From NCBI GenBank assembly GCA_030265395.1, contig JARFYF010000056.1:19859636-19923635 (forward strand): 64,000 bases of DNA, written 5' to 3'. The position numbers are program-made. This DNA is from Rhina ancylostomus (Eukaryota). Position 1 is the stretch's first letter. Each line of letters opens with the position of its first letter. Shown in pieces: positions 35,601 to 41,600 of this stretch.

Positions 35601-38600
35601 ATCAGCAAGGTGACCGGCCTCAGCACAGAAAGCCACTTTCCAAGTGGTCCTCGGGATTCACTGTTACAACAGCGGTGTTTGGGATGTCTGTATTAATGGG
35701 TACTGTTTGGTTGAGATGATGTAAGACCTTGGCCATAATTCTCTGAGTGAAATTAGAAGGGAAAATCTCTTGCTTGGGCTCCACATTAACGGACCACACT
35801 GAGACGAGGGATGTTGGCACAGCTGTTGGCTCAGTGACTGGTTGCAGGCTCAGGGTCACAGTACAGGAGAGGTTCTTCACAATTTCTGCAATTATAATCT
35901 GAGAAGTGCCTGGTCTGGGAAAGGAACCAGCTTGTGACCAAAGAACCTGGCTGTAATCTCGCACTTCACTCATTCCATCTGGACTCAGATCACTGCCACT
36001 GATGAGCAATAAACTGGCAATAGTCTTGGAGAGGCAAAGCATTGTGTTCCATGAAACACCATATCCAACTCCAACTAACCGAGCTTGGAGAATCTCAGCA
36101 GGGTTAGTGGGAAGCTGATTGAAAATATTTTCCAGCGCTGCCCAGAAACTTTCTGATTGTCTTGGGAACAACAGCCTTAGCTTATGAAGCTTTTGGTTCA
36201 GTGAATATTGATGACTGAACTTTGGTGAGTCAGGGTGGAGGAGAAGAGGCCCATTCTGCTTGGAGCAAACCAATAAGATTGTGACAGCAACAAAAATAAA
36301 AGTTAAAACGGCAGCAAGTTTTAACGAAACAAAGAAGTCCGATTCCAGAGAGACTGCAGCAGTCGTCTCCTCTCTTGGTTCCAATTCGTACCCACGGGAA
36401 TTGTGATCAGCCCCAGGAAAACTATACCACTGAGCTGTGTCAGTATTTGCCATCTGTTCATTCAACGCATCCCTGATCGTGGTCTCATCTGTGACAAACA
36501 TTAAAAAGAGTGTTTCATTTATTTAGCACTTTTTCTCGTAAAAAAAATCTCAAATCACTTCACATAAAATAAATACTGAAATTTAAACGAAGTGACAGAT
36601 CCACAGGGAAGGGTTTAGTTAGAGATACATTGTGCAGTACAGTAAAAAGACAACTTTAGTAACAGAGACAGGGGGCAGATACATTGTGTAGATGGAGTGA
36701 CATTCCAGTCACTGATACATGAAGCAGATATAGTAGATGCACAGCATCGCGTTTGGTTCATGATATGTGGGGCAGACGAGGAGAAAGAGCAGGCAAACAT
36801 GCGGAGGGATAAACAGGATCCTCTCTCCAACAAGAGTAAAAAACATTTGGCAGTTTACATGGCAAGCTTCATTAGAAACTTATTAACTGATAGATTCCCC
36901 CGCAATATCTTTGGTGGAAGAGTAAACAAGCTTCCACCCTGGATGTTCTCTCTTCTCCTCCCTCCCATCGGGTAGAAGATACAAAAGCCTGAAAGCACAT
37001 AGCACTTGGCTCAAGGACAGTTTCTATCCCGCTGTTATAAGACTGGTACGATAAGATGGACTCTTGACCTCATAATCTATCTCGTCATGACCTTACAGCT
37101 TATTGTTTGCCTGCACTTTCTCTGTAACTGTAATACCTTATTCTGCATTCTGTTATGGTTTTACCTTGTACTACCTCAATGCAGTGTGTTATGAATTGAT
37201 CTGTACGAACGGTGTGCAAAACAAGGCTTTCACTGTTCCTCAGTGACAATACTAAACCAATTCCCATAACCATCAGGAACACCAACTCAAGCTGAAGGAT
37301 CACAATTCCACCTCCCCCCCCCCCACCCCAGCTGCACTCCTGAATGGCAGCACATTGGCACAGCTGATAGTCGCTGCCTCGCTGCTCCTGGTTATCCATC
37401 TGTATATTTACCTGCTCTGTTTGTCTCCTCATCCACCCCACATATCATGAACCAAACGCAATGCTGTGCATCTACTATACCTGCTTCAGGTGCTGACTGT
37501 GTGGAGTTTGCATGTTCTTCCTGTGACCGCGTGGTTTTCCATCAGGTGCTTCAGTTTCCTCCCGCATGACATGAGGGCTGGTTGGTTCATTGGCCACTAT
37601 AAGTTGCCCCTTGTGTGCAGATGAGTGGACAGTTGATGAGAATGTGGGAGAATAATAATGGGATTAATGCAGGATTAGTGTAAGTGGGTGGCTGATGGTT
37701 GTCATGGACCCGGTGGGCTGAAGGGCCTTTTTCTGTGATGTCTTTCTCTATAAACAATCATTATCATCAAACTCTGCTTCCTGAAGAGGTGTCTTCATCT
37801 CTTTCTGGAGAATCTACTGAGATCGGGGAATGTGGATAAAGCTGGTCACTTCTCATCAGGGGTGGCACAGTGCGTGTCGNNNNNNNNNNNNNNNNNNNNN
37901 NNNNNNNNNNNNNNNACCTTTGCATTTCTTGCCACTTTTCACATTCACATCATTTGCCTTCATTTAAAGAGGTTAGGTCACACAGTGACACCTAGTCAGC
38001 AGCCCGACACCAGCCTGTCCTCTGTGACCACATAATCTTCAGGCTGGATTTAATGTGGCTGCTCCCAAACCGACATCTCCACGATTTTACACCAGCCGGT
38101 TCAGCTGGTTATTGGTCAACTGCTGGATCTGGGTCAACTATCAGGAAAGGACTGCAGTCTGCGCTCCTCACCCTCTGGACATTGAAGAGCTGCATCCAGT
38201 GTGGAAACCCCTCAACCACCCAAAGTTTGTATCACCCCAGGAGGCATGAGTGTTGCTCTGAACACAAAAAGGTGCAGACACTACTGAGGCATAGAACTGC
38301 AAATGTGTAGATTGAACAACACAACCAACATAAAGAGCCATGTACTGTGATTTTTCTTTTGTATGTATACAGTTATTATGAATAACATTTGATTTTGAGG
38401 TAAATAAAACTATCAGCGACTCAGATTCGTAATGTGGAGCAAGGCAGTAAACGAGCTAAGTTTCCCCAGACGATTTTAATTCACCAATGGTGTCCATGGA
38501 AGTTTGGTAACTGTGACAGAGGTTTACAAACCAGAGGTCACAATCAATATACTGCAGGTTCCAGAAATCTGAACCAAAGATCGGAAACTCTGGGAATATC

Positions 38601-41600
38601 AGGCAATAACTGTGGAGGGAGAAACCAAATAGATATTTCAGCATTTTCCATGACTGTGATTGAGATGGAGAGTTTGCTAATTGTGATCACTGGTTTGCTT
38701 CTACTACCCATCAGCACTACAGTAACAATAAATGTACCAGCACATCTCTTTCTGTGGACGTGGGAGGAAGCTGAAGTACTGATGGTGACACGGAGGGTGT
38801 GGAAACTCCACATGGACACCCAAGGATGGGATCAAACCTTGGTCACGGGAACGCTGGTTTGGCCTCTGTGATCAGCTAATACAGTGGAGTTGTCATGTCA
38901 AGCTTATTGTCTTCTACCCCACTGTGATAAGACTATTGAATGGTTCTCTTATACAATGAGATGGACTCTGACCTCACTATCTACCTTGTTGTGACCTCGC
39001 ACCTTATTGCACTGCACTTTCTCTGTAGCTGCGACACTTTACTCTGTACTGTTATTGTTTTTACCTGTACTACATCAATGCACTCTGTACTAACCCGATG
39101 TAATTGCATCGTGAAATGAATTGACCTGTACGATCGGTATGCACGACAAATTTTTCACTGTACCTCAGTACAAGAGACAATAATAAACCAATACCAGTTA
39201 TGTCCACAAGAATGGTGAGGTACAGGTACAAAGACAAACTTGCTTGCAGCAGCATTACAGGCAAGTAGATTCAGACAACACACAGAACATAAATTATGCA
39301 GGAATCCCTTTGCCTCCACACATGCTGCTTGACCTGCTGAGTTCTTCCGGCAGCTTTTGTTTTGCTCCAGATTTCCAGCACCCACAGTCTCCACCGCAGA
39401 GAATCGTTGCGTTCAGCTTTGCCAAAGGTGAAAGTAAAACTGCGGCTGTGGAGCACGATGGTTTGGGGAGCGCAGAGGGCAGCACACAGCCGCCGTCCAC
39501 CCTCATTCCCAGCAGATTTTTGTCAAGCTTGTGCACTCGTCACAGCCTCCCGATCCAGGGCTGGGACCCTCCCTGCCCCGGCCGCCTCCCCGCCCTCTCT
39601 CCGCTCACCTGGGTTACGGGACGCCGCCGGCGCCACTGGGCTGCGGTTAGCTGGTTGGGGCAACGGTCTGGCGTCGGCCACTCGCCCGCCGGTGCTCCCG
39701 GGCTCTGAGAATCGGGGCTTGAAGCCTCCGCCCGGGACAGGGCTCTGGGACTCGCCTCCGCTCTCCTCCATCGCTGGAGCCGAACCAGTCGGTCCGGTTC
39801 CCGGGTGGGAGGGATCTGGCGGCGGGCGGTAACCCGGGAGATATCGGGCTTGGCTGCAGCTCAGCCAGTCCAGCCCGGTCCGGGAACACCCATCAATGTC
39901 CCCCAGCTGGGGAAGGAGGGGTCCCGGCGCCCACAGCCCGGTCCCCCGGGGTTCCTGGCGCCCACTGCTTGGTCCCGCAGGGGAGGGGTGGTCCCGGCGC
40001 CCACAACCCGGTCCCCGGGGTGGGGGGGGGGGAACGCAGCGGCAGCAAACAGCCCGGTCCCCCGGGGGGGGGGGGGACCTGGCGGCAGCCCACAGCCCGG
40101 TCCCCGGGGGGGGCACCCGGCAGCCCACAGCCCGGTCCGGGGGGGGGGCACCCGGCAGCCCACCGGCGCCGCGAAACGCGCTCCGGGTTTGCGTTGGGAA
40201 CAGAATCAACTCCCCAGCGGCGGGACCGACATCCGCGGCTAACCGCGCATGCGCCGCGCTGAAGCTCGGCCGGCACTGTCTGGGGCGCCCTGATGTTGAG
40301 GGCACCAATGCGCGGCGCCGTCATATCGAGATCAACCACACGCAAAACTGCTGGAGAAACTCAGCGGATCAGGTAGCCTCTACGGAGGGAAATGGACCGT
40401 CCACGTTTCGGGTCCGAGACCTTTCATCAGGACTGGGTTCAGCTCACCGAGATTGCGCTTGCGGCGCCATGATGGTGAGGACTAGAAGGCGTCCCCACCA
40501 TGACGTCAGACAGAAACAACGTGTTTGTTCCGCTGATGTTCATAAAGTTTGTTGAAATTCAGGAGCTCCATGGCGATGAGGTTTCTGCGGGGCGGTGAGT
40601 GGGAACCGAGCGGCGGGGAACCGGGGATTGGGGGGGGGGGTCAGGGAGTCGCTCGCCACCCATTGCCCCTGTTGTGCCGAGGCTCCCAGGGACTCGGTGC
40701 ACCGGTTGATCGAAGGTTCCCTCGGCCAAGCACCAGAAGGGCCAAACCCTGTCCTCGGACTTGCCGCAACTTAGGCCCAGCTCCGCCTCCCTCCCTGCCC
40801 GGGACCCGGCCCATCTGTCACCAGGGCCGGCCGTGTCCATGCAGCAGAAAATCTGCTGGTGGAACTGGAGGTCGAGCAGCCTCTGGGGGGGGGGGAATGG
40901 TCAACGTTTCGGGTCGAGACCCTGCACCAGACGCTGCTCGGCCTCCAGTTCCCCCAGCAGAGTGTTTGCTGCTCCACATTCCAGCATCTGCAGCCTTTGG
41001 CCATTGCCATTTCCCTCCTGTGTTCCCTGGGGTCACTGCCCTGGCCATGTCCCACCAGTCCTCTCCCCATGAGAGATCATCGACCTGACACAACTGTTTC
41101 TCTCTGACTTGCCGAGTATTTCAGCAATTTTTTTAATTTCAGATCTCCAGCACTAACATTAATTTTTGTTATTTTGCCTCGCTCTCACCTGATTATGGTT
41201 GAATGTCTCTTGTTTCACCTTATAATCTATGTATCTTCTCTCTGATTCTCTCAGCACTGCCACGATTGGGCCTCGTAACCCGTTCTGTCCTCTCTTCCAA
41301 CCACCAGCTGAAAAGCCAACCATATGGGCATGCTGCAGGGCCCCTCCCAGCCATACAGGAGCCAGCACAGACAGGTCAGTGATGAGCTTACCACTTGAGA
41401 ACATTTGGGCACATGGACATTGGAACCTGCTTCACCAATGCAATATGTAGGAAATTATAAGGAGGGCCTTGTGGACAAGATGAGCTTGCAGAGGGGAGAG
41501 CGGACTGGAATGAGAAAGCATTGTAAGTCTATATCTAGGTCAGGGAGGACATTTTAAAAGTAGTTCATTTTGGCAGTCTGGGAGAATGGAAGCTGTCAAG

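Follow-up and report, generated by a model that had tools for sequence, protein, structure and literature searches.

An unnamed gene beside MRPS2 in Rhina ancylostomus is probably a third, arginine-finger-less relative of TOR1AIP1 and TOR1AIP2

A 64,000-nucleotide stretch of the Rhina ancylostomus genome (assembly GCA_030265395.1, contig JARFYF010000056.1, positions 19,859,636 to 19,923,635; hereafter the window) holds a two-exon gene on the minus strand that encodes a predicted single-pass membrane protein. The gene lies head to head with MRPS2, identified by an exon at 45755-46414 on the plus strand (Ribosomal_S2, expectation value (E) 1.1e-39), and in the neighbourhood of a FAM69/DIPK1 kinase gene, identified by an exon at 52737-53591 on the minus strand (PIP49_C, E 5.1e-62), as a preliminary description of the window had stated. 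Its C-terminal domain is very probably a true but remote homologue of LAP1_C, the luminal domain of the Torsin cofactors LAP1 (TOR1AIP1) and LULL1 (TOR1AIP2), and the site that aligns with the catalytic arginine finger of these cofactors holds no basic residue in the window protein, a feature that the preliminary description had not noticed.

The two exons are joined in phase 1 and their coordinates are collected in Table 1. The start ATG at 39771 stands in a Kozak-like context (gcgATGG), and no earlier in-frame ATG is found 5' of it, though the frame is open back to 40320. The splice donor GTGAGC begins at 39608, and the acceptor, ...tgtttgtcacAG with its AG at 36490-36489, is preceded by a pyrimidine-rich tract. 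The split codon G|AT encodes Asp55, and 163 + 869 nucleotides make 344 codons with the stop, or 343 amino acids by arithmetic. Exon 1 gives a Gly/Pro/Ser/Ala-rich N-terminus, predicted to be cytoplasmic or nucleoplasmic, and exon 2 codes for the remaining N-terminal region, the transmembrane helix and the entire luminal domain; no N-free open frame elsewhere in the window is longer than that of exon 2 (300 codons from stop to stop). The exons were analysed one by one, with alignment, search and folding done per exon or on the luminal part, and the exon 2 residue numbers used below count within its translation of 288 residues. Exon 1 aligns with residues 1-54 of a Pristis pectinata protein (P0003, LOC127582093, 343 amino acids) at 78% identity, and exon 2 aligns colinearly with residues 56-343 at 91% identity, so that only the split-codon residue 55 falls between them. 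The assembly gap at 37880-37915 (36 N, left unfilled) is inside the intron and outside the coding sequence. Because no P0003 residue is missing besides the split codon, this gap hides no coding exon and the frame is unaffected; judged from these alignments, the intron length is the only thing that it makes uncertain. The phase-consistent open reading frame of about 343 amino acids proposed in the preliminary description is thus borne out by the splice sites, the G|AT phase and the colinear P0003 alignment, and the run of N that had put its frame in doubt proves to be intronic.

Table 1. Features of the TOR1AIP-like gene and its surroundings (positions within the window).
Feature	Position	Strand	Remarks
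Coding exon 1	39609..39771	-	ATG, 54 codons and first base of split codon
Intron GT...AG, phase 1	36489..39608	-	3120 nucleotides as written; donor and acceptor read in the sequence
Coding exon 2	35620..36488	-	last two split-codon bases, 288 codons and TGA
Juxtamembrane motif LESDFFVSLK and predicted transmembrane helix	36262..36348	-	exon 2 residues 47-75; best-conserved segment of the family
Predicted luminal domain, 213 amino acids	35623..36261	-	very probably a distant LAP1_C relative; profile matches to 4tvs_A and 5j1s_B
FPRQSESFW	36142..36168	-	exon 2 residues 107-115; counterpart of FPGQSSFLW of LULL1; column-for-column alignment
Cys151 (MLCLSK)	36034..36036	-	aligned to the CLS cysteine of both solved chains; equivalent of LAP1 C424 / LULL1 C310 as numbered in the accessible text of PMC4358337 and PMC4999309
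Cys288 (GFLC-stop)	35623..35625	-	presumed partner of Cys151; matches by position LAP1 C582 / LULL1 C468 (same sources)
Asp267-Ile268-Pro269	35680..35688	-	at the LAP1 R563 / LULL1 R449 finger site by profile alignment register; no basic residue
Two AATAAA hexamers	35046..35074	-	about 550 nucleotides downstream of the stop; candidate polyadenylation signals only
G+C-rich island with 5' end of the gene	39772..41100	.	58-66% G+C at 39-41 kilobases (kb), about 36-49% in the rest of the window

A search with exon 2 gave seven proteins at E <= 0.01 among 1262 candidates, all of them from elasmobranchs (Pristis, Mobula, Amblyraja, Narcine, Mustelus, Carcharodon and Scyliorhinus), with 50-91% identity and E values from 2.5e-170 to 8.6e-75. 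Since seven elasmobranch orthologues are found at E <= 8.6e-75, the open reading frame is more than a chance one, and that reading was dropped. An elasmobranch profile searched against 1.84 billion cluster representatives returned 18 proteins at E <= 1e-3, nine of which were at or below 1e-10. Two further word-indexed profile searches (8 and 16 proteins) scored the best 8000 candidates each, so that the taxonomic range is a lower bound; a Sceloporus member was among the at least 8 proteins of the first, and Zootoca, Lepidochelys, Ambystoma, Gavialis and eight snakes were among the at least 16 matches of the second. The family extends at least over elasmobranchs, a salamander, a turtle, a gharial, lizards and snakes, and profiles of its elasmobranch and non-elasmobranch members align with each other over 253 columns (probability 100%, E 2.6e-39). 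In the maximum-likelihood tree of 33 rows, from which four 'lgn' matches were left out, batoids, sharks, snakes and lizards come out as groups, and within a sauropsid clade the turtle rows and the gharial branch separately alongside the squamates; the window protein falls in a three-row batoid set with Pristis and Mobula (support 100/98), Pristis being nearest by path. As the tree follows the species tree, these comparisons indicate that the family is one orthologous, fast-evolving gene of vertical inheritance in jawed vertebrates and that the two-exon gene of the window is real. Its relatives, which come from at least 19 named species (sharks, snakes and a salamander among them), carry NCBI models labelled 'uncharacterized protein' (LOC...). 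The gene had been called unannotated, for which 'unnamed' is the correct word, and it had been described as retained in this lineage, to which, given the salamander, turtle, crocodilian and squamate members, it is not confined.

The window protein contains a single strong hydrophobic segment (exon 2 residues 55-75, Kyte-Doolittle 19-mer maximum 2.75), preceded by an N-terminal region of about 100 amino acids that is short, disordered and without obvious domains. In addition to FPRQSESFW, the exon 2 translation carries MLCLSK, the C-terminal VTVNPEDHLESGFLC and the sequons NLS, NFT and NQT (residues 205, 245 and 259), all three of which lie in the C-terminal domain; every motif listed from the first inspection of the sequence, including the CLS cysteine, the C-terminal strand and the one transmembrane helix, is therefore present. 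Among the 25 aligned rows, NQT is retained in 12 and NFT, as N-x-T/S, in 10. The NFT sequon (35746-35754, minus strand; residues 245-247) aligns, in a low-confidence part of the alignment, at the Torsin-contacting charged helix given as R412-R419 of LULL1 in the accessible text of PMC4999309, and a glycan at this position might, speculatively, hinder Torsin docking. The order of parts, which is that of LAP1 and LULL1, together with the three sequons in the C-terminal domain, supports a luminal orientation of this domain. We infer that the protein would reside in the endoplasmic reticulum or nuclear-envelope membrane as a type II protein with a luminal, glycosylated and disulfide-bonded C-terminal domain. 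Conservation is highest around the membrane, with a mean column value of 0.64 in the juxtamembrane and transmembrane segment and 0.30-0.49 elsewhere; S49, D50, S54, L57, A58, L61, F65 and V68 (motif SD..PS..LA plus helix) are invariant in 25/25 sequences. Conservation that exceeds that of the luminal domain is unusual for a membrane anchor and suggests a partner in or at the membrane.

The relationship to LAP1 and LULL1 becomes visible through profiles of the family. When compared with the 177,635 distinct sequences of the PDB, profile A2 (25 sequences) matched 4tvs_A of TOR1AIP1 at E 1.8e-6 and 5j1s_B of TOR1AIP2 at E 3.4e-5, profile A4 (33 sequences) matched the same chains at E 9.6e-7 and 1.9e-5, and profile A3 (17 sequences, elasmobranchs excluded) at E 3.5e-6 and 3.5e-5. 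With none of these three profiles did anything besides TOR1AIP1 and TOR1AIP2 fall below E 0.48 in the PDB, where the next matches had E 0.48-0.93. The A2 alignment covers residues 11-228 of the 231 of 4tvs_A, and its core consists of FP-x-Q-x3-W, a strand and the C-L-S helix; FPxQ is present in 30/33 family rows and its W in 33/33. Single members behave in the same way, since the two TOR1AIP chains are the top two PDB matches of P0010 and P0016 (E 0.011-1.2). LAP1_C is also the Pfam family matched by the largest number of members, namely 5/25 at E <= 10 with a best E of 5.7e-4, and it was matched by 3/10 members scanned individually. We infer that the family would represent a third branch of the TOR1AIP family, outside the reach of the Pfam LAP1_C profile.

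The LAP1 luminal domain is described, in the accessible text of PMC4358337, as a nucleotide-free AAA+ fold without the C-terminal domain and without Walker A, in which a conserved disulfide (C424-C582) ties the C-terminus to helix alpha1, R563 is an arginine finger 'strictly conserved' in LAP1 and LULL1, and C496 is a highly ('most') conserved cysteine. For LULL1, the accessible part of PMC4999309 describes a C310-C468 disulfide and an R449 finger that completes the TorsinA active site, and its Torsin contacts include R276, K283, E385, R412, E415, E416 and R419. The window domain keeps the FPxQ...W helix, the next strand, the helix with the CLS cysteine, the last strand V-x-V-x-P-E and the C-terminal cysteine, and these are the elements joined by the disulfide in LAP1 and LULL1. 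LAP1 C582 and LULL1 C468 sit 2-3 residues from their C-termini; Cys151 and Cys288 presumably form the corresponding bond in the window protein. Across the family, the first cysteine is found in 29/33 rows, the C-terminal one in 30/33 and both in 26/33; the position aligned to LAP1 C496 is not a cysteine in the window protein (A2 alignment). As a separate observation, P0018, P0020, P0024 and P0026 form a well-supported subclade in which the first disulfide cysteine is replaced by R, H or L and the C-terminal cysteine is kept; this subclade has FPGQ(R/K)EALW, or FPRQ in P0020, instead of FPSQ.

The register of the finger was obtained by setting RISHLVLPVQPE against the last strand of the family in the A2 HMMER alignment, in which the finger falls on Ile268. 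At positions -12 to -10 from the Glu of V-x-P-E, none of the eight elasmobranch rows, the window (Asp-Ile-Pro) included, has R or K. Family-wide, within one residue of the finger site, Arg occurs in 6/32 rows with a C-terminus and Lys only in two more. In every elasmobranch examined, this ray included, the loop at this site is short and proline-rich; in the A2 alignment, that of the window protein (TDIPNT) is about 14 residues shorter than the LAP1 helix alpha5 region.

Taken together, we favour with moderate confidence the reading that the gene is a real third TOR1AIP-like gene without an arginine finger, which encodes a non-activating, Torsin-cofactor-like protein. In this model, the luminal domain would occupy the cofactor site of Torsin without activating it, as a decoy, competitor or adaptor. 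It would not stimulate ATP hydrolysis by Torsin in the manner of LAP1 and LULL1, because the catalytic arginine finger is absent. The conserved juxtamembrane and transmembrane segment may serve an alternative or second function, possibly independent of Torsin. Of the parts of this model that extend beyond homology, Torsin binding by a protein of the window type is possible but doubtful, and Torsin activation by it in elasmobranchs is very unlikely. A wider scheme, in which jawed vertebrates ancestrally possessed three TOR1AIP-type genes, the third being a finger-less, non-activating competitor or adaptor of Torsins in the endoplasmic reticulum or nuclear envelope that was retained in cartilaginous fishes, amphibians and reptiles and possibly lost in mammals, is unlikely in its entirety.

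Regarding the origin of such a third gene, it does not lie at the TOR1AIP1-TOR1AIP2 tandem locus, which we take to be at human 1q25.2, and its neighbours MRPS2 and DIPK1B are presumably at human 9q34.3 together with TOR4A. The gene pairs LHX4/LHX3 and QSOX1/QSOX2 connect the 1q25 and 9q34 regions. In the accessible text of PMC13012124, 1q23.3-1q25.3 and 9q33.2-9q34.3 are listed among four paralogous blocks; an ohnologue origin, as suggested in the preliminary description, is plausible because the 1q and 9q regions are such blocks. An old retrocopy fits equally. According to this explanation, which is compatible with the finger-less TOR1AIP-like gene favoured here and is itself possible though somewhat unlikely, a copy of an ancestral TOR1AIP transcript, and not an ohnologue from the vertebrate genome duplications, would have given rise to the family after insertion next to the CpG island of MRPS2, where it acquired the bidirectional promoter and a new first exon. 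The transmembrane helix and whole luminal domain in one exon, the sole intron near the 5' end and an exon 1 of low complexity within the G+C-rich island that the gene has in common with MRPS2 are as expected of a retrocopy, whereas the presumed positions of MRPS2/DIPK1B and TOR1AIP1/2 fall within the blocks of PMC13012124 (accessible text), which fits block duplication.

Several results weigh against the reading of a third TOR1AIP-like gene, and those concerning homology would be accounted for if the protein were a lineage-restricted single-pass glycoprotein without kinship to LAP1 and LULL1, in which FPxQ..W, CLS and PE...C are convergent or shared by chance. Neither exon of the window protein matches Pfam, LAP1_C included, at E <= 10, a phmmer search of the window protein alone against the PDB gave no match at E <= 10, and the elasmobranch-only profile A1 also lacks a PDB match. 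The LAP1_C matches of the relatives are sub-threshold, the best (P0010, 19.5 bits) remaining below the gathering score of 26.8 bits for PF05609, and they span only positions 17-86 of the 233 of this profile (17-80 in P0010), or about 65 positions. A first AlphaFold run with eight sequences gave a predicted local distance difference test score (pLDDT) of 32.3, and a second run on the 213-amino-acid luminal part with 33 sequences reached only a moderate level (pLDDT 68.2, predicted template modelling score 0.68), with alternating alpha and beta elements in the order H-H-E-H-E-E-E-H-E. A Foldseek search of this moderate model against the PDB gave no match at E <= 0.001; 4tvs_B was found at rank 17 with E 0.58, 65 columns and a root-mean-square deviation of 3.1 A, and its probability of 0.57 was by far the highest of the list. 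In the ESM Atlas, exon 2 found no usable match and a turtle member gave only chance-level scores of 0.78. Of the diverged LAP1/LULL1 relative claimed in the preliminary description, the relationship stands at the level of the family profiles (E 1e-6 to 3.5e-5), but the window protein alone matches nothing, and both the HMMER comparison and the AlphaFold and Foldseek comparison named there as checks gave it no match at the above thresholds. The explanation without kinship is nevertheless improbable. Three differently built profiles single out TOR1AIP1 and TOR1AIP2, the HMMER bias is 0.0-0.1, one of the alignments spans nearly the whole solved domain, and these two chains also head the matches of single sequences; there is further agreement in domain order, in length (213 vs about 230 amino acids) and in the register of the two disulfide cysteines.

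Other difficulties concern the function of the third TOR1AIP-like gene. The charges flanking the transmembrane helix do not clearly favour a type II orientation, and the finger register rests on one low-confidence stretch of a hidden Markov model alignment. In the window protein, Ala and Gln are aligned with LULL1 R276 and K283, which the accessible part of PMC4999309 gives as Torsin contacts, and Torsin binding may therefore be lost altogether. The opposite possibility, a functional third Torsin activator that supplies its arginine finger from a shifted position or uses another basic residue, is very improbable. Rows with Arg within one residue of the finger site, such as those of Lepidochelys (P0027), Gavialis (P0015) and Erythrolamprus (P0038), are consistent with it, and the N-terminal half of the domain, to which the contacts R276 and K283 of LULL1 belong (PMC4999309, accessible part), is better conserved than the rest (0.49 vs 0.38-0.44). 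However, the elasmobranch rows without exception lack R or K there, their loop is short, and the finger is reported as strictly conserved in true LAP1 and LULL1 (PMC4358337, accessible text). That the gene is the ordinary TOR1AIP1 or TOR1AIP2 orthologue of the species, relocated beside MRPS2, is scarcely credible, given a divergence too great for Pfam LAP1_C even at E <= 10, a separate family in at least 19 named species whose tree follows the species tree, and relatives that are all named 'uncharacterized' and never TOR1AIP.

The G+C-rich island is probably a bidirectional promoter shared with MRPS2, because it holds the 5' end of the gene and faces plus-strand MRPS2; a further MRPS2-type exon can be read at 44242-44400 (plus strand). 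G-rich tandem repeats with periods of 31, 35 and 43 and about 2-2.7 copies are found in the island at 39918-40163. PIERCE1, presumably the head-to-head neighbour of MRPS2 in human, was another candidate for what the gene might be, and it was dropped as the protein has a transmembrane helix and no Pfam match. MRPS2 and the FAM69/DIPK1 gene are tail to tail about 6 kb apart, and their human counterparts are presumably much farther apart. Another G+C-rich stretch, at about 62-62.8 kb, probably represents the DIPK1 gene's 5' end; it adjoins a minisatellite-like tandem array at 62800-64000, which has long open frames of short repeats on both strands (NRNPINRN... / GIPVDEIP...). The intron contains an inverted repeat with arms at 36717-36784 and 37424-37491 (68 nucleotides, 91% complementary). 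An interspersed repeat, also present in the intron, with at least three copies (about 37030-37250, 38930-39270 and 24359-24515) has similar open-frame translations (...SEK.V.HTDRTGQFI...), and one copy abuts a gap of 701 N. The whole window has 12 N runs, summing to 1684 bases, of which the largest is at 24516-25216; all were left unfilled. Downstream of the stop, the AATAAA pair is weak evidence for a polyadenylation site, since the window contains 108 copies of this hexamer.

By themselves, Torsin ATPases are inactive. The Torsin activators described in the accessible text of PMC4999309 and PMC4358337 are LAP1 and LULL1. Within the openly accessible literature, with subscription journals and supplementary files outside reach, searches for names of a third paralogue, for the LOC identifiers and for Torsin or LAP1 together with whole-genome duplication found no paper on this gene, and the name 'LULL2' returned only unrelated uses. 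The description that suits the gene best is that of a new TOR1AIP/LAP1_C variant lacking the arginine finger, for which several genomes already have a model though not a name. If this is true, a widely conserved third relative that keeps the scaffold and the disulfide but has no catalytic arginine would be a candidate for an inbuilt regulator of Torsins, and a negative one would then join the activators, which are all that has been described for this system to date. Non-mammalian model vertebrates, such as axolotl, lizards and skates, would be suited to examining this. The 1q25/9q34 paralogy blocks would also gain a dated member of a gene family, and 'uncharacterized LOC' genes that are missed by Pfam LAP1_C would receive a family assignment.

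Among the known systems, LAP1 (TOR1AIP1; 4TVS) shares with the window protein the order of an N-terminal extraluminal region, one transmembrane helix and a C-terminal domain of about 210-230 amino acids, and it is matched at E about 1e-6 over nearly the entire solved domain. Both have the FPxQ...W-type helix, a cysteine in the CLS helix and one at the extreme C-terminus, as in the C424-C582 pair of LAP1 (PMC4358337, accessible text), and no Walker A motif can be read in the window protein. It differs from LAP1 in having no Arg at the R563 equivalent, a much shorter loop at that site and no Cys at the C496 equivalent, in an N-terminal region of about 100 amino acids where LAP1 has a lamin/chromatin-binding domain, in remaining below the Pfam LAP1_C cut-off and in its genomic neighbourhood. 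LULL1 (TOR1AIP2; 5J1S/5J1T with TorsinA) is similar in its short N-terminal region and in FPGQSSFLW...TLKCLS, which aligns column for column with FPRQSESFW...TMLCLS, and its C310-C468 pair (PMC4999309, accessible part) is mirrored by Cys151 and Cys288. In contrast, the profile match to LULL1 is limited to about 80 residues (E 2-3.5e-5), there is no equivalent of the R449 finger, and the contact residues R276 and K283 reported in the same part of PMC4999309 are replaced by Ala and Gln. LAP1C-like domains have also been described in bisegmented coronaviruses of fish and amphibians (PMC11065284, accessible text), which shows that the domain also occurs elsewhere than in the two known genes. Like the window protein, these viral proteins carry a LAP1_C-like domain outside the two canonical vertebrate genes; unlike it, they are multidomain proteins of 788-2023 amino acids, in which the domain was found by profile hidden Markov models (PMC11065284, accessible text).

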